Source: a virus (taxonomy: Duplodnaviria; Caudoviricetes). Taken from it: a DNA stretch of 64,000 bases. Shown piece by piece: positions 1,584 to 36,667 of this stretch. The DNA is taken from positions 10,912 through 74,911 of the IMG/VR virus record IMGVR_UViG_2890351070_000001; one strand, given 5' to 3'. The notes under the pieces were generated by a model. That model was not told the DNA's origin. It made no database searches and was given only the letters and a program-made list of their open reading frames with translations. The first letter of the stretch is position 1; every line of letters begins with the position of its first letter. A program made the position numbers and the translations under genes.

Positions 1584-3245
1584 ATGGAACTTGCTGAGAA
1601 GGTAATTAATCGTCAGGCCGCGTTGGCAAATGAACGATCCAAGTTTGACAAGATCTGGGTGGAAACGGCTGAACGCCTCGATCCTTTCGGCTCGATACTG
1701 GAGGGCAGACGTGGGGACATGTCAAAGATGTTCAGCTCCCGTCCTTTACAGGATCTGGCGCGTTTTTCTGCGGCAATCGAAAGTCTGCTCATTCCACGGG
1801 GATCAATCTGGCATGGGTTAGAGCCTGTCGATGATGATTTGCGAGAGAGCGATGAAATTCAGGCCTGGGCAGAACAGCGTACGAAGAAGCTCTTTTCCAT
1901 TCGGTATATGGCGAGATCAGGCTTTGTCTCAAACACTCAACGGATGTTTCGGTCATTGGGGTGTTATGGCAATCAGGTGCTGATGACAGAGGAAGTACTA
2001 TCCAGAGGTCCGGGCGGTGAAGATTTGCCTCCTATTCGTTATCGCATGATCCCGATTATTGAATGCTTTCTGGCAACCACGGCCTGGGGACAGGTAGATA
2101 CCTTCTACCGGGTTTATAAGCTTACACTACGCCAGATTATTGATGAGTTTGGTCTGGAGGCTTTGCCTGAGTTTTTGATGACCCGATTGGACAAGCCAGA
2201 CTTGTTGGAAGAAAAGTTTGAAATTATCCATGCCATAGATACGACCCTGAGTGGGGATACGCAAACTGCCCTTCCCTGGCCATCTGTTCATGTTCTCAAA
2301 GGTCATCATCATGTCTTACGGCAGTCCGGCTATTACGAATTTCCCATTCACGCGTCATCATTCGTAGAGAGTGACGGCGAAGCTTATGGATGGGGGCCGG
2401 GCATGATGGCCCTGCCGGATATCAAACAGCTCAATGTGATGAACAAGACAACGATTGCAGCGGCTGAACAGGCAGTGTCACCAGCCTTTGCAACGGTGCA
2501 AAAGCTTAAGCGTAGACTGAATCTGAGTGCCAATGCAATCAATCCAGATCTTGTAACAGATGATGGACGTTTAAAAATTCAGCCAATTGTGACTGGTGCA
2601 CGACCGGATATCGGAGAACAATTGATTGCCAAGAAGCAGATGGATATCAGTGCGAATTTTTATGGGGATCTTTGGCAGATCCTTGTGAACAAGCCGGATA
2701 TGACCGCCTATGAAGCGGCGTTGCGGGCGCAGGAAAAGAACGAATTGATTGGGCCACCTTTTGCCAAGCAGGAAGAAATGCTGGCGTCTATGGTGATGCG
2801 TGAAAATGCAATTCTGGAACGACAGGCAGAGGACGGCATTATTGATTTGCCTCCTCGACCGGATGGATTAGAGGGCAAAAGTCTGACCCTGAAATTTACC
2901 AGCCCCATGGCTAAATTACGTCGTGCGGCAGAAGATGTGGGTATTCAACGGACGTTGGAAACGGCTGCGCAGCAGGCACAGTTCGACCCGACGATAATGG
3001 ATAACTTTGACCATGACCGTATTATTCGTGCCCGTGCAGATATTAATGGTATGCCCGCAGATTTGATGCGGCCTGTGGAAGACGTACAGGCAAGTAGACA
3101 GGCAAAAATAGATGCGGAGCAACAGCAGTTGATGGCGGCGCAGCAAGCACAGGATGTTGATACCGCAGGGAAAGCCTTGCCGATAATGGAAGCACTGGGG
3201 GCGGCTGGACTTAACCCTGATCAGATCCCGGAAGGAGAGGTTTAA
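1584..3245 (+). CDS. portal protein (head-tail connector, Bbp21-like)
   Basis: 553 aa, YGWGPGMMALPDIKQLN and MTAYEAALRAQEK motifs of podovirus portals; position; paralog of 46962-48602. Confidence 0.9.
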   Translation: MELAEKVINRQAALANERSKFDKIWVETAERLDPFGSILEGRRGDMSKMFSSRPLQDLARFSAAIESLLIPRGSIWHGLEPVDDDLRESDEIQAWAEQRTKKLFSIRYMARSGFVSNTQRMFRSLGCYGNQVLMTEEVLSRGPGGEDLPPIRYRMIPIIECFLATTAWGQVDTFYRVYKLTLRQIIDEFGLEALPEFLMTRLDKPDLLEEKFEIIHAIDTTLSGDTQTALPWPSVHVLKGHHHVLRQSGYYEFPIHASSFVESDGEAYGWGPGMMALPDIKQLNVMNKTTIAAAEQAVSPAFATVQKLKRRLNLSANAINPDLVTDDGRLKIQPIVTGARPDIGEQLIAKKQMDISANFYGDLWQILVNKPDMTAYEAALRAQEKNELIGPPFAKQEEMLASMVMRENAILERQAEDGIIDLPPRPDGLEGKSLTLKFTSPMAKLRRAAEDVGIQRTLETAAQQAQFDPTIMDNFDHDRIIRARADINGMPADLMRPVEDVQASRQAKIDAEQQQLMAAQQAQDVDTAGKALPIMEALGAAGLNPDQIPEGEV

Positions 3246-3249
3246 GGAT

Positions 3250-3531
3250 ATGCTTAAAGGCTGGCCCTTTTCCCTGCAAAAACAACACGAACTTGTCGAG
3301 GCTTATAGTCGACTTTTTGCGTCAAGTGATGGTCAGATTGTTTTGGCCGATATTCTTGACCAGGCGCAAGCTTTTGAGGCGACGCCCCCTGATGGGCCGT
3401 CTGTCTTCAATGACGGAAAGCGTGCTGTTGCGTTTGATATTCTTCGTAAAGCTTCTGTCAGTTCTGACTTAAGAGCAGAGCTGGCAAAAGCAACTTATCT
3501 GAAACAAGAGGAAGATACACAGAATGAGTGA
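3250..3531 (+). CDS. Bbp19-like small phage protein
   Basis: AY.RLF...DGQIVLADI...FNDGKRAV motif, directly after portal. Confidence 0.75.
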   Translation: MLKGWPFSLQKQHELVEAYSRLFASSDGQIVLADILDQAQAFEATPPDGPSVFNDGKRAVAFDILRKASVSSDLRAELAKATYLKQEEDTQNE

Positions 3532-5860: not shown

Positions 5861-6096
5861 TGGCGCTGCGGGCAAAATCAGCAAAAGGAGCGACTACAAA
5901 GGAGACGCGTCGTGCTGCACGATCAGTGTCTGCTGAAAACCTTTCCGGTGTCCAAAATACTGTGTCGGAAGCTGTGTCGTTGAATGTACGGGCGATTGCC
6001 TTGGGTTATTACGGTGCCCAACTCAGGGAGGAGGGGGATACCTTTGAATTGAGAGAGGCAGAGCACTTTTCATCCAGCTGGATGAAAAGGATTTAG
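5860..6096 (+). CDS. small phage structural-region protein
   Basis: GYYG..LRE.G..F.L....HFS..WM shared with 51025-51312. Confidence 0.7.
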   Translation: MALRAKSAKGATTKETRRAARSVSAENLSGVQNTVSEAVSLNVRAIALGYYGAQLREEGDTFELREAEHFSSSWMKRI

Positions 6097-6132
6097 CGTC
6101 ATCAAGGGTTAAAATTTCCTTTGATGTTTGAG

Positions 6133-6166
6133 AAAACGGGAGATCGGAACACTGATCTCCCGTTTT
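6133..6166 (+). terminator. intrinsic terminator after head genes
   Basis: AAAACGGGAGATC...GATCTCCCGTTTT inverted repeat. Confidence 0.75.
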
Positions 6167-6199
6167 ATATTTTCCCATAATTACAGGTCAGGAAAACAG

Positions 6200-6778
6200 A
6201 TGAGCAGCAAGGTTGAAATCTGTCGGGATGCTTTGCAGATCCTGGGGGATAAATCGATTGTCAGCCTGGAAGACAGCAGCAAAGAAGCACGACAGTGCAA
6301 GATTGCCTATCCCAGAGCGGTAGAGACCGTCTTGCGTAGCTATCCCTGGTCGTGCGCCATTCGTCGGGTCAAACTGGCTGCATCAGCAGAAGTATCTGCT
6401 TTTGGAGAGTGGAAACGATATCGCCGCCCGGTTGATGACATTCAGGTTTTGCCGATCACAACGACAGGTGAAGCCAATGGCTTACCCGTGACCTATCAAC
6501 TAGAGGGACGGTATATCCTGTGCCACCAAGACGCACCGCTTTATTATCGCTATATCAGTAGTGAGGTTGAACCGTCTGATATGCCGCCGGATTTACGCCG
6601 TGTTGTGGCAACTCAGTTGGCCGTGAGATTGGCAGAGGTTCTGACCGGATCGCAAACCAAATTGAATATGGCTCTTGGTCTCTATCGGAATGATTTGGCT
6701 CAGGCAAAAGCCAACGACATGATGGAAGATGGTGTGAGTGATATTATGTCTTCATCATGGGTGGAGGCGCGAAACTGA
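6200..6778 (+). CDS. tail adaptor / tail tubular protein A-like
   Basis: ATG 6200; EICRDALQILG...VLRSYPWSCAIRR; protein identical to 51394-51972. Confidence 0.82.
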   Translation: MSSKVEICRDALQILGDKSIVSLEDSSKEARQCKIAYPRAVETVLRSYPWSCAIRRVKLAASAEVSAFGEWKRYRRPVDDIQVLPITTTGEANGLPVTYQLEGRYILCHQDAPLYYRYISSEVEPSDMPPDLRRVVATQLAVRLAEVLTGSQTKLNMALGLYRNDLAQAKANDMMEDGVSDIMSSSWVEARN

Positions 6779-10385: not shown

Positions 10386-13300
10386 ATGCGAAACATTCCT
10401 GATAATCAGGTATCGACCACAGCTCGATTTGAACTTCCTGAAGAAAACAGCGCCACAATTGAAAATGGCATTTCCCACCTTTCCAGTACCGTCGTGTTGC
10501 GTGAAACCCAAGAAAATAAAGAACAGAAAACATACCGGACGGAAAATGCTGATGATGGTGGACTGTTGGATGATATAAAATCCGGGATAGATACTGTATC
10601 AGAATACTTGCACAACACTTTGCAGGATGTCGATCTCCATGACGGCATTTCTGAGCTTACCACAAATATCTATCGGGGAGTTGTTGATCTAATCAATTTT
10701 GAAAATCTTTCCCCAACAGAAGTCCGGAAAAAAGTAGATCAGGAATATGGCGGAATAAAAGCCGAACTTTCTACTCGTCATAAAAAGGAGGCTCCAGAAC
10801 AAGCACACAAATTTGACGAAAAACTGGATAAAAAGATCAGTGCGGATAAACAGTATATTGAAAGTTTGCAGCAAAGTGCTTACCAGAAAAAAGCTTTTGG
10901 TACGATTGATCGTCTAGCTAAGAAATATGGTCATGGTGTTACGCAAAGCCCGGAAACCTTGACGGATGCTATGATTTCTATTGAGGATACTGTTAATAAG
11001 CTGGCTCCCGGAATTGGGCGGGATAGGGCCGTTACCAAAATAAAAGAAACGCGGGGAGTATTGTTTAACAACGCATTGCAGGGATATACGGATCAAAAAA
11101 ATTATATCGCAATTCAATCTCTTTTGGATGGCATTGATCCGGTGACGAATGCAAGGTTGAACAGTGGCGATTATATCACAGCAGAAGAGAGAGACTATTT
11201 CCAAAACCTGGCTGGCAAAGGATTAAGGCGTGAGGCGGCATACCAATTACTGGATGAAGTTGAGGCCCAGGTTATATCAACGGATGAGTTGTTGGATGCT
11301 TTGCAAAATCATCCCGATAGCAGTCTTGGTCAGGAAGCACTGTCCCTTTGGCAAGACAGAAAGCGAATTGAAAAAAAGGTAAACAGAGACCGGGCCAAAA
11401 AACAACGCTATTCAGTATGGCAAAATATTACAGAGACTAACGGTAATGTTGATGTCACTGATTTACCTTTGGATCTATCCGATGAAGATCGGGATCTATT
11501 CATTTCCTATCTGAATAATAAAGATGATCTGAACATGGGATTGTATGATCCCAAAGGCCCGGGCGCCAAGATTACGGACGTGCTCCTTTATGAAATAAAG
11601 AAGTTGCAGATAGCGAACCCGGACATTTTCGCAGATCGGGATTTATCTGGTTATTTCAGAGAGTTATCCCCCCAGAAAATTGCCCGGGTCATCGCAATGC
11701 AAGAAAACGGACTTGATCCCAAAGATGCCGCCAGTTTCAAAATGCGTGAAAGAGAGGCCCTCAGGGCTTGGAAACAAGTGACGGGCCGTAATGGTTATGA
11801 CGAACCGGACCGACAGGAGTTTATTAACTTCAGCATTCGTTTCGGCGAAGAAATTGACGACTTTATTACGCTTGAAGAAAGACCTGCAAGCGGTGGGGAT
11901 ATCAACAAAATCGCCAACAGGATGATTGAAAGTGATGAGATGATTTCACTAGAGAACGTGGATGAAGCACTTAGCGATGGAGAACAAGAGTTCTTTGAAA
12001 ATGAAAGAGATTTAAATGTTGATTTTCCAGTAACTGTATCAAATGAAGAAGAATTTAACAATTTAATTGAAAAGCAGGTTGAACTTCCAGAAGGAGTGAC
12101 AGCAACTTTTGTAGAAGATGAACAGACAGCTCTTGATGATAAGCATACAGGAAAACCAAGCTACAATGTTATCTTTCACGATGCAGATGGAAATCTTATA
12201 GATGGCCCTGCAACTATGAAACGTCTTCCTGGAGAGACTAACGAACAAAGCCATCTTAGGTATGTGCCGGGAGAGGGGTTTTTGAAAGATCAACCAAGAA
12301 ACAAAAAACAATATAATCTGGCGAGTACGGCTGCCAGGGATTACATCTACGGAATTCGTGGACGACATCCAGTAAATGAAGATGAAGAAAAAGAGATCTT
12401 CCTGTTAGCTGAAAATATCTACGGCATTATCCGGGAAGAGTACGGTGATGAGAATCATATCTCACAAGGTGAAATCTATACGATGGTTGATGACCTTGCT
12501 GCTGAAGGTAAAGCTCCTCGATTAAATGGATATAAACCACCAACTACACAATTAGGGCGAGATTTAGAGAAATACTACAAAGAAACGAATGTATTTGGAC
12601 GGTTTAGAAATGGGTTTATGTATGGCGCAAGAGGGATTATGGCCTCAGGTAATATTTCAATTGGGTTGAATCATCTTGAGCAGAGTGAACGTTTCGGAAA
12701 TTGGGCGGATAGAAAGCAAAAACAACTCGAAGCAGAAGAAGTTGCAATACGTAAAAAAGCAGAACATCTAGGCGTTGATTTTAAGGATGTCGAGCATTTA
12801 CTTTCACCAACTCGTATGAAGGTTAAAGAATATAGAAGATCTGAACAAGAGTATAGAGAAAACTTTATTGGCTTTATTACCAGAGGCGCAGAGTTTAAAG
12901 AGTTAATGGAGCAGGGGCGTCGAAATCCAGTTATAGTGGCAATGGAAAAAGTAGAAAATCCAGACGAATTTTGGGAGTTAATGTCTTATGATCCTATGGG
13001 TGTTGTTGGACAATATTTTCTAGAGAATTTGGCTAGCACTGCGGTAGATATGGCTAGTGGTGTCGTCGGAGGCCCCGCTGCCAGTGCTGCAGTTTCAGGC
13101 TCATTAGAGCACTCTAAGGTTCTAATGGAAAAATTAGAAGAATACGGTGCAGATTTGAAGGACCCCAAAAGCGTCCAAGAAACAATGACGGAACATGGCG
13201 ACGAAATAAGAAAAGATGCGAGAGTACAAGCATTTGTTGCTGGTGCTGCGAGTGTTATGACGGGGTGGATGGTTAACTCTGCAGTTAAAAAGCCGATTGT

Positions 13301-28049: not shown

Positions 28050-28328
28050 TTACTGCCTTCCGATTGTATCGATTGGCACGACATTTTTGTCGTTTGCTTG
28101 AAGTAGTTGCTGATGAGTGAGAATTATCTTGTGAACTTCTACGAGCTGTTCGTAAGAAAGTTTTTCGATGTCGGTAGAGGTAAATCGTTTCTCTATAAAT
28201 TGATTTACGATTAAGTCTGTTTTATGAGTTTTAATCGAATGCAGAATATTGCTTTTTAATTCTTCTTTCGAAGGCTGGAGGCACCCTTCAAAGATTTCAA
28301 TTAGCCTCTGCTTTATTTCTGAGGTCAT
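28050..28328 (-). CDS. hypothetical protein
   Basis: Co-oriented, abuts PAS-like gene. Confidence 0.55.
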   Translation of the reverse strand: MTSEIKQRLIEIFEGCLQPSKEELKSNILHSIKTHKTDLIVNQFIEKRFTSTDIEKLSYEQLVEVHKIILTHQQLLQANDKNVVPIDTIGRQ

Positions 28329-28410
28329 ACGTTCCGAATACCCCTGTATGCGTTATTTTTGGTTGTTGCATCAAGAGGATACCAGTAACGGTGGTTGTGT
28401 CAATCTTGAG

Positions 28411-29007
28411 TTAAGAAACTTTCTTCAACGCTTGAACGATAACCCTTTGCATCTTAGTTTTTTCGGTTTCATCCAAAAATACTTTTATGCCCTCTTTAAT
28501 AGCCTCTTCTTTTGTCTCTGTAGGCATGTGGATACCTTCTTTATCGAGGACATACTGTAGTGCTTCTGCAGCAATGACTTCTAAATCAGGCTCAGATTTC
28601 ATTCTTTTGGGTAGTGATTTTGCTCGTGCAACCAATTCTCCCAATTTCATCCCTACTTTAAGTGTGTCGTCTTCTGTCGCACAGTATGTGTCTAGCTCAT
28701 CTATTATGGGGCTGAGATCTGCTCCGGATAACAAAATACCTTCTTCGAACAGAGCTTGAAGGAAAGTAACTCTTGTACTCCTGTCGGTAGCCATAAAAAG
28801 GAGTTCTGTCTCCTTTGATGAGCCGGGTAGGAGATCAGTAGGAGTCACATCAAGTGCCGCGGAAATGCGTAGCATCCATGATTGGGTTAGTTGGCGTTCA
28901 CCTCTTTCTAGTTTGGCGACTTGGGATCTGCCAGAGCCAATTTTTTCTGCGAGGTCAGTCTGAGAAAGGCCTGCGGCTTCTCGTAGTTGTTTGATTTTAT
29001 TCTCCAT
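28411..29007 (-). CDS. CI-like prophage repressor (XRE HTH)
   Basis: IKQLREAAGLSQTDLAEKIGSGRSQVAKLERG; divergent from Cro-like gene; no S24 peptidase domain recognised. Confidence 0.85.
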   Translation of the reverse strand: MENKIKQLREAAGLSQTDLAEKIGSGRSQVAKLERGERQLTQSWMLRISAALDVTPTDLLPGSSKETELLFMATDRSTRVTFLQALFEEGILLSGADLSPIIDELDTYCATEDDTLKVGMKLGELVARAKSLPKRMKSEPDLEVIAAEALQYVLDKEGIHMPTETKEEAIKEGIKVFLDETEKTKMQRVIVQALKKVS

Positions 29008-29008
29008 A

Positions 29009-29096
29009 TTGCCAATGTGGCCCATTTCTTTCCATCAAAAAAGATCCAATGTGGGTACATTTTTCATTGACTAATTGTTCCCAATATGGGTACATG
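29009..29096 (+). promoter_or_regulatory. PR-like promoter with 2-3 operators
   Basis: TTGACT 29067-29072, TACATG 29091-29096; operators TGTTCCCAATATGGGTACA (29076-29094), TCCAATGTGGGTACA (29045-29059), weaker CCAATGTGGCCCA (29012-29024). Confidence 0.8.
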
Positions 29097-29102
29097 CTGT
29101 TT

Positions 29103-29312
29103 ATGACAAAATTCAAAACGTACCTAAAGACTCACAAAATGACTGCGAAAAGCTTTGCCAAACTGATGCCTGTAAAGACAACGGCATTTGCCGTGAGGAA
29201 ATGGGCTAGGGGAGAGCGTATTCCTCAAGGAAAAAGAATGGATGCAGTTGTTAGGGTCACCAACGGTGCAGTCCAACCCAATGACTTCTACGACACAGGA
29301 GAAAGCGTATGA
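29103..29312 (+). CDS. Cro-like HTH protein (possibly leaderless)
   Basis: AVRKWARGERIP...IV..TNGAVQPNDFY-type Cro signature (here VVRVTNGAVQPNDFY). Confidence 0.82.
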   Translation: MTKFKTYLKTHKMTAKSFAKLMPVKTTAFAVRKWARGERIPQGKRMDAVVRVTNGAVQPNDFYDTGESV

Positions 29313-29326
29313 GTAGGGCATGCTTT

Positions 29327-29941
29327 TCATTCCTCAGCTGCAGCTTTCTCGGCATCAACCCGCTCCTGCCGCAACCTGATCATTTCAGGAAGTGTGTAGA
29401 TATAGGTCATGACCATTTTAGTGAGAAACCCAAGCTCTTTGGCTTCATTCACTGTAAACGGGTCTTCATCATGAACGGCATCATTCCCTCCAAGCCTAAC
29501 ATGATGGGAAAAGTCCCCAAGCTCTTCTGTCAACAAACCTTGGTTGACGAGCTTCTTCAGGCGAGAAGCCAAAAGTCCTTCTATTTCTGGAAACCGAATC
29601 TTCAACCCCACATCAAGAGCCTTACGGTACATAGCGCCCGCAGCATCAGCATGTTGCTGAAGAATACTCTCGGCCTGAAGGTAATAGTGCTCAACATTCT
29701 CAGGCATATGATCTGGAAGATCAGGCTCGTGTGGAGTTGGATAGAAACCCCTCAAATGTACTCTATCAAGAGCTTGAGCGACGGCAACAGCAGGAAAAGT
29801 ACATTCTGGGTTTCCGCACATCAAGAACCACGCAGAGGTATTTCTGTGATTGATAGAATCAAAGAAATCAAATTTGCCCTTTATCTCAAATCCAGAATTC
29901 TTTGTTCCACAATGCGGGCAATCGTGAGGAAAAGTTGCCAT
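29327..29941 (-). CDS. DUF4145 (HEPN-related) protein with N-terminal Cys motifs
   Basis: CPHC...CGNPEC; AAGAMYRKALD...VRLGGNDAVH. Confidence 0.8.
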   Translation of the reverse strand: MATFPHDCPHCGTKNSGFEIKGKFDFFDSINHRNTSAWFLMCGNPECTFPAVAVAQALDRVHLRGFYPTPHEPDLPDHMPENVEHYYLQAESILQQHADAAGAMYRKALDVGLKIRFPEIEGLLASRLKKLVNQGLLTEELGDFSHHVRLGGNDAVHDEDPFTVNEAKELGFLTKMVMTYIYTLPEMIRLRQERVDAEKAAAEE

Positions 29942-30112
29942 GTCTAATTCATCCCAATCACTAATGTATTTCGCTAATTCTATCGACATGACGTTGCGAA
30001 GCCAACAAGGATCTGGGGAGAAAATAGCAGAACTACTCAACTTACATGAGAAAGCCCCTGAAAGTGATCGGTTTGCATGTACCTGTGCATTGGTTACTGC
30101 GCTCATTAGTTC

Positions 30113-30322
30113 TTACGACACCCCAAAGAACCCCGGAAGCTCAGCCGCATGACGCATAAGCCCGTTCTCGATGCAGGACAGTTGGCTGATAGCAAGCTCG
30201 GCCTGACGTGCTGTGGCGAAATCAGCAATGTCTCTGGACTGTGCTTGAAGGTCTTGGAGCCTGAACATAGCCGCACTGATTGTATCGAGCGTGGGCCTGA
30301 TGCAGTTGGCGTCGTTTCTCAT
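30113..30322 (-). CDS. hypothetical protein
   Basis: ORF with AGGGA RBS. Confidence 0.45.
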   Translation of the reverse strand: MRNDANCIRPTLDTISAAMFRLQDLQAQSRDIADFATARQAELAISQLSCIENGLMRHAAELPGFFGVS

Positions 30323-30408
30323 TTTTATTCCCTGATGGTTGCTGCGTTGGTGCTAACCATGACGGGTGAAAATTCAAAAATCTATTGTAACTCAAGGGCG
30401 TTATTTCA

Positions 30409-30888
30409 ATGACGATGCAGAAAACCAGACTGCCAGATACGTTTGAAGATGCTGTTGTAAAGGTCATGGCAGAGCTTACCGCTGATGGATGCGGGCAGGT
30501 CATTGGCAAATCTGCAAGCCTCATACGCCAAGCCGCAGATCCAGACGCAGAGCATCAGTTAAATCTAAAGCAGGGCTTGCAACTGGATGTTGCTTACGTG
30601 ATGGCAACAGGCAAAGAACCGACAATTCTAACTGCGTATCGACGTCAATTATCAAGTGTTGCAGCCCCAAAGCATGAGCCTTGTGAGCGCACGGACCGTA
30701 TAGCGACTTTCGCGAAGGAAGCAGGTGAGGGGTTGTCTGCTTACTCCCTTCTGAAAGGCGAATATGTATCGCACAACGATGGCGCTGTTGCCTTGAAGGA
30801 ACTGTCTGAACTTGAAGACGTAATCAAGCTCATGAAGAGAGACATTGAGACGGCTATGGGGATCGATCCTCTTAAGGTTGTTGACTGA
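30409..30888 (+). CDS. CII-like phage regulatory protein
   Basis: Position after cro; HTH-like GQVIGKSASLIRQAADPD; KEAGE...LKELSEL. Confidence 0.55.
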   Translation: MTMQKTRLPDTFEDAVVKVMAELTADGCGQVIGKSASLIRQAADPDAEHQLNLKQGLQLDVAYVMATGKEPTILTAYRRQLSSVAAPKHEPCERTDRIATFAKEAGEGLSAYSLLKGEYVSHNDGAVALKELSELEDVIKLMKRDIETAMGIDPLKVVD

Positions 30889-31041
30889 TTTCTGATTTTC
30901 GACGCCGCCTGTGTTCGTGGCGGTCTCCCTCAGCATTGGAGTGCTGTGAATAACGAACAGGGGGCTTTTATCTGGTCCCAGCATACCAAAGCCTGATGAC
31001 TTAATTGGGCCAAAGATAGCTTAACTGCCTCAGAGGTGAGC

Positions 31042-31188
31042 AGAGAAGTGCCAGAGTCCGGTTAAATGGGCTGCCAGTGGGATTTTAAACGACGGTGTTA
31101 AGGCTTTTCTAGTGAGCCGTAATGCCCGGCCCCAGTATTGCAGTTGGGAGGAAATGCCCTTTCGTTGGTTCGAACCCAACCTTCTCTG
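31042..31188 (+). ncRNA. tRNA-like structured RNA with about 90-nt insert
   Basis: AGAGAAG/CTTCTCT acceptor stem, D-arm-like TGCCAGAGTCCGGTTAAATGG, T-arm GTTGG-TTCGAAC-CCAAC. Confidence 0.6.
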
Positions 31189-31299
31189 TTCTCCTGTGAA
31201 GCAGTTCACAACATACAGCGCCAGTGACCGCTATATGCCTGGAGCCTCCCTGTTAACTATGCCGGGGAAGGGTGTTCGCCCCGGCAGCTTTTTTGAGGA

Positions 31300-31557
31300 A
31301 TGAGAATGATGAAATACATCGCAAAAGATAAGAACGGAACAGTTCTAAGCAAAGGCGACAAGATCAAACACGTCTTCCCAGCTTATGTAAATGACGCCAC
31401 CGGAACCGTTGTTAACCCCGTTCCGAACGCCCCTTCTGATGGGTTTGATGGCGAGCGATATGTTGCTGACGTCGTTGGGCCCAATGCAGTGCGGGTCGTC
31501 TCAGCAAGCAGACGCATTCCTGTTTACGGATCAGTTTACGTTGAAAAGGTGGCGTGA
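31300..31557 (+). CDS. phage hypothetical protein
   Basis: GAGG RBS, coupled to next gene. Confidence 0.6.
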   Translation: MRMMKYIAKDKNGTVLSKGDKIKHVFPAYVNDATGTVVNPVPNAPSDGFDGERYVADVVGPNAVRVVSASRRIPVYGSVYVEKVA

Positions 31558-31889
31558 TGCTTACAGAAGAAACCAGCCCAACCCAACACCTCGAAGGACA
31601 GGAAGAGGCGTTTAAGACAACAGAAATGCGACCAGAGACGAGCTTGAACGCAATCAACGGCGTCACGGCTGATCGTCTCCGCGGGTTTATCGAGAGAATT
31701 GAGCGTCTGGAAGAAGAGAAAAAGGGCATCACTGACGACATCAAGGAAATCTATGCGGAAAGTAAGGCCCTCGGTTTCAACACCAAGATAATGCGCAAAA
31801 TCGTGTCGCTTCGGAAGCTCGAACAGCAGGACCGGATGGAGCTAGAAGAGCTTATTGATGTTTATAAGCATGCTTTGGGAATGGTGTGA
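31554..31889 (+). CDS. gapR: GapR/DUF2312 family DNA-binding protein
   Basis: ADRLRGFIERIERLEEEKKGITDDIKEIYAE.K..GF..KIMR. Confidence 0.88.
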   Translation: MMLTEETSPTQHLEGQEEAFKTTEMRPETSLNAINGVTADRLRGFIERIERLEEEKKGITDDIKEIYAESKALGFNTKIMRKIVSLRKLEQQDRMELEELIDVYKHALGMV

Positions 31890-32765
31890 TGCTCAAAGTT
31901 CTCGATCTCTTCTCAGGCATAGGTGGCTTCTCTCTTGGTCTTGAACGAACAGGCGGTTTTAAAACCGTGGCCTTTTGCGAGATTGAGGAATATCCCCGCA
32001 AGGTTTTGGCGAAACACTGGCCTAATGTGCCGATCTATAAGGACGTTCGAAATGTCAACGCAAAGCAGCTTCTTGCCGATGGAGTTACCGCTGATGTCGT
32101 TACAGGAGGCTTCCCTTGTCAAGACCTCAGCACAGCAGGAAAGCAAGCTGGCATTGAAGCCGAACGATCCGGTCTATGGTCCGAACTCTGCCGAGTTATT
32201 GGCGATGTTAGACCCAAATACGCAATCGTGGAGAACGTCGCAAACCTGCTTAGTGGCCCTAGCGAACAACGAGGCGGATGGTTTGGGCGTGTTCTCGGAG
32301 ACTTGGCCTCGATCGGGTATGATGCGGAATGGCATTGCATACCGGCTGCCGCCGTTGGTGCCCCTCACAGGAGAGATCGGGCTTGGATTATTGCCTACCC
32401 CAAGAGCAAACGATGCTCACAAGCGGGGGAACTTCAACATAGAAGAACCCAGGAACGGATTTCCGGCAGCGGTAAAGCGAGTGTTCTTACCGACAATCTC
32501 AAAGAACGAATTCAAGGGAGCAAGTCGCGATCGTTATCGGGGGGGGGGAGCATTTTCGTGGTGCCAAAATGTCAGAAGGGCTGAGGAACTGCGAGGAAGA
32601 TCCGATATACCTGAACCCCTGTTTTGCGGAAGTCGTGATGGGATTCCCAATTGGGTGGAGCGACTTGAAGGATGCGGTAACGCCGTAGTTCCTCAAATCC
32701 CCGAACTTATCGGTTACGCAATCCTTGACGTTGATGCAGCCCGTACAGCAGAGGCAGCGGAATAA
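31886..32765 (+). pseudogene. C5-cytosine DNA methyltransferase, alpha chain, frameshifted at G10 tract 32539-32548
   Basis: Motifs I (DLFSGIGG), IV (GFPCQD), VI (ENV), VIII (PHRRDR) in one frame; motif X (GNAVVPQ) in another frame after the G run. Confidence 0.85.
32052..32688 (+). pseudogene. overlapping-frame methyltransferase beta chain (M.EcoHK31I-beta-like), broken at the same G10 tract
   Basis: SWRTSQ...TWPRSGMMRNG...LLPTP before tract; LNPCFAEVVMGFPIGW (motif IX-like) in third frame after tract, TAG 32686-32688. Confidence 0.72.
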
Positions 32766-33217
32766 TGCTCTCCTCAATCCTCAAGCTCCTGACCCACAAT
32801 AGCAAGCTCTCAAGCCGAGCATATAACCGCCTCGGCCCAGAAGACAAGCTCGCCGTTAAAGTCGCCGCAGCATTACGCGAATGGTCACTGTCGGGTCGGC
32901 TTGAGGGTGTCTGGACGCATCCTCCGCATGAAGTAGCCGGCGGCACAAAAGGCGCAGCAGTCAAGTACGCAATCGCTTGTGCTATGGGCATGATTACAGG
33001 CGCTCCTGATTACCTGTTTATCTCAAGTCACGGCGGGGCCTTGATCGAGCTTAAAAGCAAGACAGGGCGATTAAACGACAATCAGAAGAATTTCAAAGCA
33101 TGGGCCGAGAAACACAACGTTCCATATGCGCTTTGCCGATCACTGGATGAGGTCGAGGCGTTTCTTTGTGATGTTGGGTTATTGGCTCCATTGGCAGGAT
33201 ATGGGAGGGCGGCGTGA
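32765..33217 (+). CDS. VRR-NUC / PD-(D/E)XK nuclease
   Basis: GAPDYLF...IELKSKTGRLNDNQKNF. Confidence 0.82.
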   Translation: MLSSILKLLTHNSKLSSRAYNRLGPEDKLAVKVAAALREWSLSGRLEGVWTHPPHEVAGGTKGAAVKYAIACAMGMITGAPDYLFISSHGGALIELKSKTGRLNDNQKNFKAWAEKHNVPYALCRSLDEVEAFLCDVGLLAPLAGYGRAA

Positions 33218-33396
33218 AACGTAACGACTGGAAGAAACACCATGCGAGGCTTCAAGAAGTGACAGAGTCCGGAGATACCAGAGGCATTCACGATGCTTGG
33301 AAAAAACTCCGTCAGTCCACAACACAGAAGCTGATAGACGAAATGCCGCTGACCTCAAAGATACGCTTGAGTGTTAGCCGAATGACGAGGGGGTGA
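33214..33396 (+). CDS. phage hypothetical protein
   Basis: GTGA-coupled at both ends. Confidence 0.6.
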   Translation: MKRNDWKKHHARLQEVTESGDTRGIHDAWKKLRQSTTQKLIDEMPLTSKIRLSVSRMTRG

Positions 33397-33803
33397 GTAT
33401 GAGTGATCAAGCTTTGCAAACAGAGTCAAACCTAGTCGAAACACTTTATGATCGAGGCGTTCTCGGGCTTAAAGATAGCAGGGATCGTCGCGCAGAACGG
33501 CGTAGGGATGATGCTCTTTGGTTGATGGAGCTGTACGAATTTCTCTACCACCCTAAAGACGCTGCCCGTTACGAACCTTTCTCCAATCATGCCAAAGGCT
33601 ACGGCGCAGAAATGAGTGACGAAGAGGCTGAACTGCGTTCGCTTTATCATCGCTACCTGCGCGGCTTGCCTGCCTCTATCACTCAGTCGCTTCGCTTTCT
33701 TTGTAAGGATCAGCAAATGCCCCGAAAGCAGATAGCGCCACTTGCTGAATGCTTGGATCAGTTGAGTGATTTTAGAAAATCAGAAGAGAAGAGGGGCGGG
33801 TGA
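33393..33803 (+). CDS. DUF6456-like putative late regulator, paralog 1
   Basis: LYDRGVLG...LWLMELY...EMSDEE...LRF.CKDQ...CLD.L shared with 36209-36667. Confidence 0.5.
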   Translation: MSMSDQALQTESNLVETLYDRGVLGLKDSRDRRAERRRDDALWLMELYEFLYHPKDAARYEPFSNHAKGYGAEMSDEEAELRSLYHRYLRGLPASITQSLRFLCKDQQMPRKQIAPLAECLDQLSDFRKSEEKRGG

Positions 33804-34030
33804 TGGAAGCTAAAGCAAAGACAAAGATCAAAAGCAGTGGGTATGCCGGACTGGATATTATCAGAGGGCGTCATGGGCTTAAAAGACGACTACTCAAGGG
33901 CGAGAAGGTTTTCTTTGATGTGAGGGTTCAAGTCGATCCTGATCCTCGCGCATGGAGTGATGATGGCACCTCAATAGAGTTTGGTTGCATCGTCCTCGAT
34001 GTTGATGAGGTGGAGCAGCCGAATGACTGA
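33800..34030 (+). CDS. phage hypothetical protein
   Basis: Coupled; DDGTSIEF motif. Confidence 0.6.
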   Translation: MMEAKAKTKIKSSGYAGLDIIRGRHGLKRRLLKGEKVFFDVRVQVDPDPRAWSDDGTSIEFGCIVLDVDEVEQPND

Positions 34031-34058
34031 GAAAATCAATATGCTAGAGGTTGAGGAT

Positions 34059-34388
34059 TTACTTACAGGGCCAAGACTTAGTGAACCAAACCACCATCAA
34101 CTCGAGGGATGGTTTGCTACGTTCTTTAGGGTTTTCACTCAAATTTTTCATAACGAGTTTTTTTACTTGTTCGTTACTAATGTCGCTTGGAGGGCAAATA
34201 TATTCATTGAATTCAAGGGTGTCGTAGACCGCTCGTATGGGAATATCGCAATCTTCTTTCCCTGCATTACATGCGTGAAAAAGGTCATTTCCGCTATCGT
34301 TTTTATCTGCATAAGCAGAACCACTGAGACAAATGATGATGATAGCAAACAATATTACTGGAACTCTGAAGGGATCTTTAGTGCTCAT
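34059..34388 (-). CDS. Rap1a/Tai-family immunity-like exported protein
   Basis: Signal peptide; GNDLFHAC...C...ICPP...Q...LV...L..NP...WPC pattern. Confidence 0.7.
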   Translation of the reverse strand: MSTKDPFRVPVILFAIIIICLSGSAYADKNDSGNDLFHACNAGKEDCDIPIRAVYDTLEFNEYICPPSDISNEQVKKLVMKNLSENPKERSKPSLELMVVWFTKSWPCK

Positions 34389-34426
34389 GGTGTTGTCCTG
34401 TCAGGGGAGGTTGCGTGATGCGAAAG

Positions 34427-34942
34427 TTATTTACGGATTACAGTAAACAAAAAGACTTTCTTACTTTCAGCCGTAGCCCAGTATTTAAACTCTCTGAATT
34501 CCTTTTCTGCTCTTTTAATTTGCCCAGATGTAACTGGTTTAACCGTGTGTCTAACGATATTTTTCAATTCGTCGGAGGTCAAAGAAGGGTCGATAAGAGA
34601 TATTACATTTATGGCGAGCAGGAGAAACTTGTTTCTATCCCCGCTAACTACCGTAGCGGAACCAGTGAGATCAGAGTATTTTTGCCCTCTGGTAAACCTT
34701 ACACTATCGTTGTTCAAGTGATAGCTGCAATAGGATTCAGATCCCGCTTCGCACTTTTTGTCTGTAATTTTATAATCCAAAGAGAGTCTTTGGGTCAGCT
34801 CTGTGAAAGTGCTCTCAAACTTATTGAAATCAACTTCTTCTTTTCCTTGGTTATCCGCATAAGCAGAGCTTATGAAAGTACACAAAGTAATAGCGAAGAG
34901 TGCTTTAAAAATAAACTTCATATCAATTCCCCCATTACTCAA
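34427..34942 (-). CDS. exported hypothetical protein (moron)
   Basis: MKFIFKALFAITLCTFISSAYA signal peptide (true start probably this Met). Confidence 0.6.
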   Translation of the reverse strand: MSNGGIDMKFIFKALFAITLCTFISSAYADNQGKEEVDFNKFESTFTELTQRLSLDYKITDKKCEAGSESYCSYHLNNDSVRFTRGQKYSDLTGSATVVSGDRNKFLLLAINVISLIDPSLTSDELKNIVRHTVKPVTSGQIKRAEKEFREFKYWATAESKKVFLFTVIRK

Positions 34943-35014
34943 ACTCTCCCAAAAGGACTCTCACAGTGTCTAGAGGTATTTGATTTTGATAGCAGAAAAG
35001 CGGGGGTTTGGTAG

Positions 35015-35887
35015 ATGGCTGAAGGCTGGATGCAGCTTCATCGACAGTTAGTCGAGTGGGAATGGTATACGGATGCGAATACGTTTCGTGTGTTCATGCA
35101 TATCCTGCTTAACGCAAATCATAGTGAAAATAGCTGGCGTGGAGTGGTCATTAAACCGGGTCAATTTGTTACCGGAAGAAAGGCATTAGCCAAAGATTTA
35201 GGGCTTTCTGAACAACAGATACGCACCACCCTAAACAACCTGCAATCAACCAGCGAAATAACCATCAAAACAACTAACAAATATTCAATAATATCAATAG
35301 TTAAATGGTCAGAGTATCAGGGTAAGCAACCAGCAGAAAAACCTGCAATCAACCAGCCAGATAACCAACAATCAACCACAAACAATAATGATAATAATTT
35401 TAATAATATAATACCCCCTATTAATCCCCCACAAAAAACACCTGAAAAAACAAAGCCGAAATCTAAGCCCAAGACTTACCGACTACCGGAAGACTGGAAG
35501 CTTTGTGATGAAGGCATCAAGTTCGCCCGAGAAAAAGGAATGACCGATGATGAGATCAGAACCACAGCGGAAGAATTCAAACTCTACTGGCTTGACCAGA
35601 GCACCAAGCGTCCGGGGTGGCACAGAACTTGGTGCCGTTGGATCATCAAAAAATGCGAAAGTCGTGGCGCGTCTTTTGGCAGCAAGTCCACAGGACAACG
35701 ACAAGGCGGTAATGACGTCCTTGGAGCGTACACTCGGGTGCTCGATAGGGCTGAAGCGAAAGACGCTCTTTCCGAAGAACGGCGGAATAGTGGAGGTGAT
35801 CGAGAAAGTGACAATCCATGGGAAACCTACGACGGATCAGCTAACGGAGGCATTGGACATTCTGAAATCATCGACAACGCCACTTAG
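35015..35887 (+). CDS. phage replication initiator
   Basis: GWMQLHRQLVEWEWY...GQFVTGRKALA wHTH; C-terminal RLPEDW...F..YW...W..TW..W. Confidence 0.8.
   Translation: MAEGWMQLHRQLVEWEWYTDANTFRVFMHILLNANHSENSWRGVVIKPGQFVTGRKALAKDLGLSEQQIRTTLNNLQSTSEITIKTTNKYSIISIVKWSEYQGKQPAEKPAINQPDNQQSTTNNNDNNFNNIIPPINPPQKTPEKTKPKSKPKTYRLPEDWKLCDEGIKFAREKGMTDDEIRTTAEEFKLYWLDQSTKRPGWHRTWCRWIIKKCESRGASFGSKSTGQRQGGNDVLGAYTRVLDRAEAKDALSEERRNSGGDRESDNPWETYDGSANGGIGHSEIIDNAT
35237..35413. repeat. candidate replication origin: iterons plus AT-rich tract inside initiator gene
   Basis: AACCTGCAATCAACCAGC at 35237-35254 and 35340-35357, further AACCA units, then AAT-rich run. Confidence 0.65.
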
Positions 35888-36212
35888 CCAAGTTGAAATC
35901 ACCAAAGGCTTGATGAAACTCAGAGCGCTGACAGCAACCAGAAATGAACAAGCTGGAATGGTAGAAATCCAACTAGATACCTACGCCGAAGAACTTGGAG
36001 CTTGTGCTGCTGATTGCACAGCTTATGCGCTTAAACAAGCGGGGAAAGAAAAGTGGTGGCCTACGTGGTCCGAACTATTGGCTCATCTGAATGAAGTTGA
36101 TCAGGTTCGCAAGATCCTAACACGGGAAATGGAAAAACAATTGAGTATTGTGAACACGGATCGAGAGCCAGGTATGCACAGTTTCGGTGAATTGATGAAA
36201 GCGGAGGGGTGA
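35547..36212 (+). CDS. replication partner (helicase loader/P-like), start uncertain
   Basis: Overlaps initiator 3' end; Y...L......A...W..KWWPTWSEL-type pattern. Confidence 0.5.
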   Translation: MMRSEPQRKNSNSTGLTRAPSVRGGTELGAVGSSKNAKVVARLLAASPQDNDKAVMTSLERTLGCSIGLKRKTLFPKNGGIVEVIEKVTIHGKPTTDQLTEALDILKSSTTPLSQVEITKGLMKLRALTATRNEQAGMVEIQLDTYAEELGACAADCTAYALKQAGKEKWWPTWSELLAHLNEVDQVRKILTREMEKQLSIVNTDREPGMHSFGELMKAEG

Positions 36213-36667
36213 GGGTGAATAAACTCGAAATTGTTACCAACGAACGCAGGCAACACGACAAACTTCGTGCAGGTCATGACACGATCCATGTGGAAAACTC
36301 AACCCTGATCGAAAAGCTTTATGATCGCGGGGTTCTGGGGGCTAAGGGTGCGCCGGGGAAAAAAGCAGAGCAGCGTAGAGATCATGGTTTATGGCTGATG
36401 GAGCTTTACGCTGATGTGTACCGTTCTGAGGGTGTGGCTAAGTATCAACCTCCCGGTACAGGTGGTGGTAGTTACGAGATGAGCGATGAGGAAGACAGAA
36501 TACACACGCTTTATCGCAGGTATTTAAGAACACTCCCGCCAGTGGTGACGCAGACGCTGAGGTTCGTGTGTAAGGATCAGTCGTTGCCCAGACTGATGAG
36601 TGTCCCAATTACTGATTGTCTGGATAAGTTAGGGGAGTTTCGGAAGGCGGAGAGGGAGAAAAGGTGA
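36209..36667 (+). CDS. DUF6456-like putative late regulator/antiterminator, paralog 2
   Basis: Last early gene before late region (Q position); paralog of 33393-33803. Confidence 0.55.
   Translation: MRVNKLEIVTNERRQHDKLRAGHDTIHVENSTLIEKLYDRGVLGAKGAPGKKAEQRRDHGLWLMELYADVYRSEGVAKYQPPGTGGGSYEMSDEEDRIHTLYRRYLRTLPPVVTQTLRFVCKDQSLPRLMSVPITDCLDKLGEFRKAEREKR

Follow-up and report, generated by a model that had tools for sequence, protein, structure and literature searches.

The stretch of DNA investigated here (hereafter the window) comprises 64,000 nucleotides of the Caudoviricetes record IMGVR_UViG_2890351070_000001 (IMG/VR; positions 10,912 to 74,911) and carries a prophage immunity region, in which a cI-like gene on the minus strand is followed by a cro-like gene on the plus strand. 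Behind cro, and backward in the rightward early operon, lies a gene of the RAZR type. Our subject is what stands opposite to it: ORF-A, an open reading frame (ORF) on the operon strand, which covers the whole minus-strand RAZR gene in the codon-aligned frame, and similar stop-free frames, here called bridge frames, which span other backward genes of the same operon (Table 1).

RAZR (formerly PD-T7-4) is presented in passages of PMC13017515 as a ring-activated zinc-finger HEPN RNase assembling on phage portal rings. As in the protein described there, the product of the window gene has a Zn ribbon, a DUF4145/HEPN-like domain and a conserved Arg and His. The gene matches Pfam DUF4145 (PF13643; 2.8e-8, 34.1 bits against a cut-off of 23.1), phrog_1305 (2e-31) and PD-T7-4 in PADLOC (3e-8). 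All of its homologues (n=11) open with MAxxxHDCPHCG; C8, C11, C47 and R149 are invariant, C44 and H157 nearly so, and the N-terminal Cys4 zinc ribbon (motif CPHCG) is present. The shared N-terminus fixes the start of the gene at 29941. A 259-codon version of the DUF4145 ORF (29327-30106) was discarded, because the homologues start at the Met of MAxxxHDCPHCG and the extension contains five TTA/CTA/TCA codons. R149 and H157 may well be equivalent to the catalytic R146 and H154 of the Escherichia coli RAZR treated in those passages of PMC13017515, an equivalence read from the same 8-residue spacing.

In the codon-aligned register, a stop on the antisense strand can arise only opposite a sense TTA, CTA or TCA codon. 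Among the 204 codons of the RAZR gene (20 Leu, 6 Ser) none of these three is found, where the codon use of the window leads one to expect 6.4 (P0 = 6e-4), and the depletion is specific to this frame, the remaining two antisense frames containing 13 and 10 stops. The log-odds of codon use, coding versus shadow, amount to -53 for ORF-A, +59 for RAZR and +56 for the neighbouring ORF-B. No Pfam or PHROG family was found for ORF-A, which is called as a protein by one annotation source. An original prediction for this locus had stated that an ORF runs antisense through the DUF4145 gene, and had named a test for stop-codon depletion as a check; the statement is borne out, the frame spanning all of 29327-29941.

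The plus strand is covered by ORFs without a gap from the cro stop through the 159-aa early gene. The cro-like stop (TGA 29310-29312) is overlapped by the ATG of ORF-A at 29309 in the form ATGA, with AGGAG 7 nt upstream; the ATG of ORF-B (29940) is situated 8 nt before the end of ORF-A and has GAGGA ahead of it; ORF-B and ORF-C, as well as ORF-C and the 159-aa gene, are joined by ATGA (at 30149 and 30409, respectively). The junction coordinates, overlaps and Shine-Dalgarno (SD)-like motifs of this chain are all as originally given. Starts which overlap or abut the preceding stop and have an SD-like motif upstream represent the layout expected of translationally coupled ORFs, ATGA overlaps being a classic device of such coupling.

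ORF-C lies over a further backward gene, which encodes a conserved protein of 69 amino acids. The NCBI annotation at 30149-30322 contains ORF-C and lacks the 69-aa gene. Comparing the window with the related prophage L104, the 69-aa gene differs at 13/14/32 sites in codon positions 1/2/3, and 53 of its 69 residues are kept in the sense frame versus 37 of 69 in the aligned antisense frame. Since differences are concentrated at third positions and the sense frame is better kept, the minus strand is the constrained one at 30113-30322; on this pattern of change, ORF-C was rejected as the sole real gene at 30149-30322. Homologues of ORF-C (P0019/P0020) diverge completely beyond residue 58. The 69-aa gene has no TTA/CTA/TCA codon, against 2.9 expected (P0 0.038). 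ORF-C, predicted to be an antisense-bridging ORF, does lie in the aligned frame antisense to a real, conserved backward gene. No PADLOC match was obtained for the 69-aa, 159-aa and neighbouring proteins, and a search for the 69-aa gene across 46 genomes of the family of G001 added one weak, interrupted match and nothing else. The ATGA junction of the plus strand falls on the conserved LM(R/A/V)HA motif of the 69-aa gene. A leftward transcript from the 69-aa gene would cross RAZR and, antisense to cro, enter cI; the establishment transcript of lambda is the analogue of such a transcript.

A second bridge is found downstream at 34023-35014 and consists of two consecutive frames over two backward genes. 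The Rap1a-like gene carries no TTA/CTA/TCA codon against 4.1 expected (P0 0.009), and the 164-aa gene none against 6.9 (P0 3.7e-4); the frames opposite to them (34023-34418 and 34415-35014) belong to no Pfam or PHROG family, and GGAG stands ahead of the start of the former. Five genes on the opposite strand which are not embedded in the plus-strand operon carry 9-27 TTA/CTA/TCA codons. For the Rap1a-like protein and for a 171-aa protein no relative was detected in the viral contigs.

Table 1. Features of the rightward early operon and its surroundings in the window
Feature	Position	Strand	Basis or remark
cI-like repressor, 204 aa	28411..29025	-	Pfam HTH_3 2.5e-15; PHROG transcriptional repressor families
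cro-like gene, first of rightward early operon	29103..29312	+	phrog_35 transcriptional repressor 2.8e-6
ORF-A, 212 codons, stop TAA 29945-29947	29309-29947	+	stop-free codon-aligned antisense frame over RAZR gene
RAZR / PD-T7-4-type defence gene, 204 aa, Zn ribbon and DUF4145 HEPN-like domain	29327-29941	-	Pfam, PHROG, PADLOC
ORF-B, 70 aa	29940-30152	+	real small gene, conserved divergent RAZR partner
Conserved 69-aa gene of unknown function, co-oriented with cI	30113-30322	-	homologues 77% and 68% identical in Kiloniella genomes
ORF-C, 87 codons, ATGA couplings at both ends	30149-30412	+	codons 1-58 lie antisense to the 69-aa gene, in the aligned frame
159-aa early gene	30409-30888	+	phrog_38866 1.2e-16, unknown function
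Bridge part 1, stop-free aligned antisense frame over Rap1a-like gene	34023-34418	+	start 8 nt before end of preceding ORF
Rap1a-like exported protein gene, 109 aa	34059-34388	-	Pfam Rap1a 2.3e-10; phrog_3870 7.2e-10
Bridge part 2, stop-free aligned antisense frame over 164-aa gene	34415-35014	+	GGGGAGG before start; stop abuts ATG 35015
164-aa protein gene, signal-peptide-like N-terminus	34427-34921	-	translation; NCBI annotation
DnaD-like replication gene reached by second bridge	35015..35887	+	phrog_2514 1.7e-30

Three related Kiloniella prophages (L104, L105 and L106), all without RAZR, have cro, the 69-aa gene, the 159-aa gene or GapR in common with the window; in the same place, L105 (K. 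antarctica) carries a cro-like homologue of 38% identity and L106 a homologue of the 159-aa protein of 46% identity. The 69-aa gene, placed backward directly ahead of the 159-aa early gene and at locus positions 6001-6207 in each of them, is devoid of TTA/CTA/TCA in 4 of 4 copies, that of the window included. Of the 69 third positions, 26-34 differ from copy to copy, and 17 if the two K. antarctica copies are compared. A frame corresponding to ORF-C is open and coupled in all four prophages, with only 28-37 of its 69 antisense residues kept between the window and each of the others; in L104-L106 the frame, which opens with M(T/S/N)H(K/Q)P, extends from its coupling with the prior ORF to the next gene. 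Two of the three carry, further to the right, other backward genes, likewise stop-free on the operon strand: a 201-aa gene in L104 (no family, codon log-odds +38, P0 3.7e-4) and a TM2-domain gene in L105 (Pfam 6.1e-9, P0 0.0024); the coupled plus-strand ORFs which enclose them are 324 and 387 codons long, respectively. The check on homologous phages with different morons named in the original prediction has thus turned out positive. Across the window and L104-L106, loci of 45-48% guanine-cytosine (GC) content, 9 of 9 backward genes identified have no stop on the operon strand; for two of them (the 201-aa gene of L104 and the 164-aa gene of the window), composition, annotation and N-terminal shape are the sole grounds for regarding the gene as real. 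Multiplied over eight of the nine, P0 comes to 2e-19, and still to 2e-9 if the chances per gene are deliberately inflated.

Homologues of RAZR were surveyed in 46 loci from viral contigs and phage records, which form with the window 36 clusters at an identity of at least 70%, and independently in a second sample of 30 metagenome clusters. The aligned antisense frame is open in 11 of the 36 clusters, against 1.77 expected from the codon use of the flanks (P = 2.3e-8). A null model built on the genes' own composition gave P about 1e-28 and was not relied on: CTA is, in general, less frequent than A at third positions would lead one to predict, which inflates the significance. We relied instead on the flank-codon null and on an empirical background, namely how often ORFs of at least 180 codons from the same loci lack TTA/CTA/TCA in their last 210 codons. 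This happens in 1 of 36 ORFs at a GC fraction below 0.50 and in 1 of 21 at 0.50-0.56. The RAZR genes of mid-GC loci are open in 5 of 17 cases (window, L047, L012, L017, L009) versus 2 of 57 in the background (Fisher 0.006); with the metagenome set included, 6 of 26 are open (Fisher 0.010). In the open genes, A-ending codons are used at a normal 18-35% in the other four-fold families.

The arrangement of ORF-A recurs in L047, L012, L017, L013-16, L003/4 and others. Of 12 loci examined, 11 have ATG as the start of the antisense ORF and one, L047, has GTG; the start mostly stands behind an SD-like motif, and the ORF ends 4-11 nt past the next ATG. The overlap of its start with the upstream stop amounts to exactly 4 nt in 8 of the 11 open clusters, and in 7 of 10 if the window is set aside (P = 6.5e-6 at a chance of 0.095 per locus). 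The flanking genes are unrelated between loci: L047 has phrog_1123 and a replication O-like gene there, L012 and L017 have a CII-like gene, L021 and L002 a methyltransferase gene, and L013-16 TerS and TerL; in Burkholderia phages RAZR neighbours a CII-like gene and PAPS reductase.

The pair L012 and L017 allows for a separation of the two strands. Their RAZR proteins are 65% identical, the antisense translations only 36%, compared with 33% for the shadow of an ordinary gene, and synonymous change at conserved residues reaches 56% in RAZR (80/144), equal to the neighbouring CII-like gene (52/93, 56%), while the RAZR gene is stop-free in both. Purifying selection on the antisense amino-acid sequence is consequently seen neither in this pair nor in the 69-aa gene. 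Openness is labile on the RAZR tree, on which supported branches force at least 4 changes. In the clade of the window, eight members are embedded and open, two embedded and closed, none is open without being embedded, and five are closed and not embedded or of undetermined context (Fisher 0.007). The two embedded closed members are the enterobacterial phages L005 and L006, of lambdoid type; lambdoid-type enterobacterial phages use N/Q antitermination.

Taken together, these comparisons support well the view that the stop-free state of the bridge frames is kept by selection, and their antisense amino-acid sequence is not. Conserved openness combined with a free antisense sequence points to selection for translatability, not for a protein. 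The original claim that the bridging ORFs are selected to stay translatable over reverse genes thus stands for ORF-A and ORF-C, in which the absence of stops is kept in the comparative data, and fails for ORF-B, which proved to be a gene in its own right.

ORF-B starts where RAZR starts: the two ATG codons overlap on opposite strands in CATG (window 29939-29942), which places the ribosome-binding site of each gene inside the other. The same layout with a divergent ORF of at least 58 aa occurs in L005, L009, L011, L012, L019, L021, L025 and L047, and the layout is also present in L083 and L048; in L005, an Stx phage, RAZR and its divergent partner are annotated as gp19/gp20. A hidden Markov model (HMM) made from nine RAZR-adjacent ORFs finds the window ORF-B among 4266 ORFs (E = 7.4e-4) and matches further RAZR-adjacent ORFs outside its training set, and a 16-member profile finds 204 clusters at E <= 0.001 in 1.84 billion, mostly proteins of 55-85 aa. 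In most of the loci with the CATG layout the divergent ORF belongs to this family; no match to the ORF-B model was obtained for those of L019 and L025. The family has a C-terminal FVxALIGxL-type motif in common, the window copy being its most divergent member, and between L012 and L017 the equivalents of ORF-B change by 0.36/0.23/0.55 at codon positions 1/2/3, which is the pattern of a coding sequence. Judged by its profile matches and its mode of change, ORF-B, which is also annotated at NCBI, is a real conserved gene of a 55-85-aa family divergent at the RAZR start, and its description as a mere bridge had to be abandoned. ORF-B may regulate or restrain RAZR. That RAZR usually occurs with a small divergent partner, with overlapping start codons, bears on how a prophage controls an RNase which its own portal could trigger. 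In PMC13017515, RAZR is treated as a single protein; the main text does not use the words 'antisense', 'operon' or 'prophage', and its passages mention neither a divergent partner nor an open antisense frame.

As for the benefit of the bridge frames, we consider the following reading as a whole the best explanation and rather probable, judging from the sequence comparisons. The rightward early operon would be one chain of translationally coupled ORFs, into which accessory genes (RAZR, the 69-aa gene, the Rap1a-like gene and the 164-aa exported-protein gene) were presumably inserted backward. These appear to be written with synonymous codons avoiding TTA, CTA and TCA, which leaves the aligned frame on the operon strand without stops. 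ORF-A, ORF-C and the frames 34023-34418 and 34415-35014, each with its own SD-like motif and with a start over the preceding stop, end at or just past the next start, and ribosomes would translate them, the product probably being irrelevant. The operon transcript would then never be bare across the 200-640 nt of antisense sequence; bridging would guard the antisense RNA, otherwise untranslated, against termination by Rho/NusG and pass ribosomes to the next gene, ORF-B being the first to receive them after ORF-A. According to PMC11551753, transcripts which are not translated, among them antisense RNAs, are terminated by Rho and NusG. In the plus-strand RNA over ORF-A the C/G ratio is 1.17, with 80-nt windows up to 1.85, compared with 0.69-0.97 in the sense genes of the operon. 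Anti-polarity against Rho is a plausible benefit, and attractive for three reasons: antisense RNA, which as a rule is not translated, is a target of Rho/NusG, the plus-strand RNA over RAZR is C-rich, and those embedded closed cases that can be named are lambdoid-type. The known remedies for polarity are processive antiterminators (lambda N/Q, RfaH).

Several observations weigh against this reading, and some of them would favour an origin of the bridge frames as a by-product of codon bias and chance, for which only three codons need be absent and the couplings would follow from a compact operon. The empirical background exceeds the rate of the codon model and rises to 3 of 17 ORFs at a GC fraction of 0.56-0.60 and to 9 of 41 at 0.60 or above, wherefore the open high-GC cases (L002, L003/4, L013-16, L021, L031, L042, L048) are not individually significant, and only the open mid-GC loci carry weight singly. 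Chance does produce long shadow ORFs: in L105, for example, one of 195 codons runs opposite to the methyltransferase gene. Only 2 of the 30 metagenome clusters are open (L048 and L083), or three if L098, open only after start correction, is counted; in these three the ORF-B layout is present, as is the coupling where a flank exists. Closed frames are numerous among backward RAZR genes whose convergent neighbour lies close by (for example, L005, L027, L036, L057, L077, L090), and it should also be noted that gene calls and flank orientation in the loci follow a crude longest-ORF rule. Overlaps of 4 nt are the norm among the real genes along the operon (29103-36667), and 28% of long ORFs end in [AG]TGA; the four consecutive couplings of the original argument thus do not by themselves set these ORFs apart, and it is by its stop-codon depletion that ORF-A exceeds chance. 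Finally, the chain is interrupted once between cro and 36667, at 30889-31299, where the only plus-strand ORF of at least 45 codons has 63 codons and starts at 31112; here the operon either tolerates an untranslated stretch or begins a new transcript. Bridging is therefore not a general rule of RAZR loci; the trait is real but patchy, and concentrated in the phage operons of some lineages. Chance as the whole explanation nevertheless strikes us as improbable: it would have to account for nine open backward genes out of nine at 45-48% GC, with a joint chance of 2e-9 even when inflated, for the excess of open mid-GC RAZR clusters over background, for normal use of A-ending codons elsewhere in the open genes, for the 4-nt coupling in the one correct frame at 7 of 10 loci, and for an openness which survives saturated synonymous change.

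Equally improbable, in our view, is that ORF-A and its like are true overlapping genes with functional antisense proteins. Start codons, SD-like motifs and gene-like coupling speak for such genes, and so do existing annotations (ORF-A, ORF-C, and BtTXDOH_27 over the antisense of a RAZR homologue). Against them stand the lack of a family match, the negative codon log-odds of ORF-A, the antisense conservation in L012/L017, no better than that of an ordinary shadow and accompanied by undiminished synonymous change, and the poorer keeping of the antisense residues of the 69-aa gene. The ends of the ORFs also shift with the neighbour, some being fused to neighbouring coding sequence (324-473 codons), and the bridged genes come from six unrelated families. 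For ORF-A itself, the L012/L017 comparison and the codon log-odds led us to reject a functional protein. Less easily dismissed, though still unlikely, is that openness and translation of the frames are maintained for some purpose unrelated to Rho, be it termination-reinitiation as the sole means of starting ORF-B and later genes, protection from RNases, prevention of pairing with convergent moron mRNA, or help given by coupled ribosomes to the RNA polymerase of the operon in overriding the RAZR promoter, which would silence RAZR in lytic growth. All the evidence for selection on openness fits this equally well; moreover, the antisense frame always ends within a few nucleotides past the next ATG, and the SD motif of ORF-B lies inside the RAZR coding sequence. 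For silencing of RAZR in particular, its activation by phage portal rings, as given in passages of PMC13017515, provides a prophage with a reason to shut its own copy off. On the other side, the downstream starts have their own SD-like motifs, so that coupling is not obviously required, and ORF-B adjoins closed RAZR genes, too (L090, L093, L075, L065), on which ground the presence of ORF-B was also rejected as the reason for openness.

The nearest described analogue is the ambigrammatic narnaviruses, in which passages of DeRisi et al. 2019 (PMC6884476) and Retallack et al. 2021 (PMC8316113) describe a reverse ORF over the RdRp gene. There, as here, the reverse ORF is codon-aligned, covers the whole forward gene and owes its lack of stops to synonymous Leu and Ser codons; it encodes no recognisable protein, translation itself has been proposed to matter, and the open frame is kept in a subset of lineages. 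In alignment and in conserved openness the present frames agree with ambigrammatic coding: they run aligned over a whole gene, and stops are absent beyond chance in relatives (69-aa gene 4 of 4, RAZR 11 of 36, and, more weakly, 2 to 3 of 30 in metagenomes). The differences are considerable, however: narnaviruses are eukaryotic RNA viruses with the two ORFs on complementary RNA strands of the replicon and a core polymerase gene involved, whereas the prophage has double-stranded DNA, the frame lies on the operon mRNA with its start and stop overlapping the neighbours, inserted accessory genes are spanned, and the proposed anti-polarity benefit would be specific to bacteria. A survey of antiparallel ORFs in prokaryotes (10.1101/724807) reports that antisense frames without stops are in statistical excess, chiefly in the aligned register, and that their translations lack negative selection; its authors speculate that translation might matter and attribute the main example, dnaK, largely to codon optimisation. 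The survey offers neither context nor mechanism, and the frames are not linked to backward genes in operons or to stop-start coupling. Our literature search returned no prior description of bridge frames in phages, nor of the translatable antisense of an inserted gene as a remedy for polarity.

If the preferred reading, that bridge frames are selected and translated to keep the operon transcript covered, is true, selection for being translated, and not for a protein, shapes hundreds of nucleotides opposite real genes. It would furnish a rule for where accessory genes land, explain how defence and immunity genes sit backward without breaking an operon, and account for annotation on the wrong strand (BtTXDOH_27, and the missed homologue in Klebsiella phage 2b LV-2017); zero TTA/CTA/TCA codons together with overlapping start and stop codons would be a signature of hidden translation, and the constraint imposed by Rho polarity on operon architecture would become testable with silent mutations. 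A wider proposal, about which we are nearly evenly divided and lean slightly to the negative, is that backward accessory genes (defence, immunity and membrane morons) in tightly coupled phage operons lacking processive antitermination obey a general design rule, by which they are spanned by stop-free aligned bridges. The inserted gene would be recoded synonymously, so that ribosomes of the operon translate a polypeptide without meaning across it and transcription remains coupled to translation; the bridges may also silence the backward gene in lytic growth. Were it to hold, these phages would provide a DNA counterpart of the ambigrammatic RNA viruses and a class of ORFs which are translated and whose protein is irrelevant.

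Some further observations concern individual loci. In L013-L016 (3001-3651), the RAZR homologue lies backward between the small and large terminase genes and its antisense frame overlaps both by 4 nt, a position beside terminase genes which is striking because RAZR is triggered by portal rings. In L031 (2917-4338) and L042 (2263-3597; both on the minus strand of the locus) and in the plus-strand ORFs of L104 and L105, the bridge frame is fused to neighbouring coding sequence, so that a real protein seems to be prolonged by a long stretch without meaning, read opposite to the backward gene. In L004 (phage phiBt-TXDOH), BtTXDOH_27 is annotated on the antisense ORF of the RAZR homologue (2405-3310); in L003 (phi644-2) only a fragment, gp55, is annotated, and in L006 (Klebsiella phage 2b LV-2017) there is no feature at 2501-3133. 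Between cro and the 69-aa gene, the place of RAZR and ORF-B in the window, L105 has a T5orf172/MUG113-domain gene, which lies on the operon strand (6171-6668, minus strand of the locus); by this comparison, the slot is a hot spot of accessory genes.

The 159-aa gene had been labelled CII-like, which reflects its position only: no Pfam family was found above cut-off, BLASTP against a CII-like member of phrog_101 gave E = 0.28, and no relative was present in the viral contigs, phage records or genome contigs searched. Promoter and terminator scans of 28300-31300 yielded no more sites than shuffled sequences; a -35/-10 match upstream of RAZR (30005-29977) is a match to the consensus only. The immunity region contains no tRNA and no Rfam match at E <= 0.1, ARAGORN and Rfam detected nothing in 30889-31299, and the DNA of 28400-31000 had no match among the phage records. 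Within the interruption of the chain, the identity of 31180-31298 to L104 and L105 amounts to 84-96%, much more than in the DNA around it, and a conserved non-coding element or promoter is likely there. Further downstream, the cytosine methyltransferase gene of the window (31886-32765) is split across two overlapping frames, its homologues being intact in L104 (262 aa) and L105 (291 aa).

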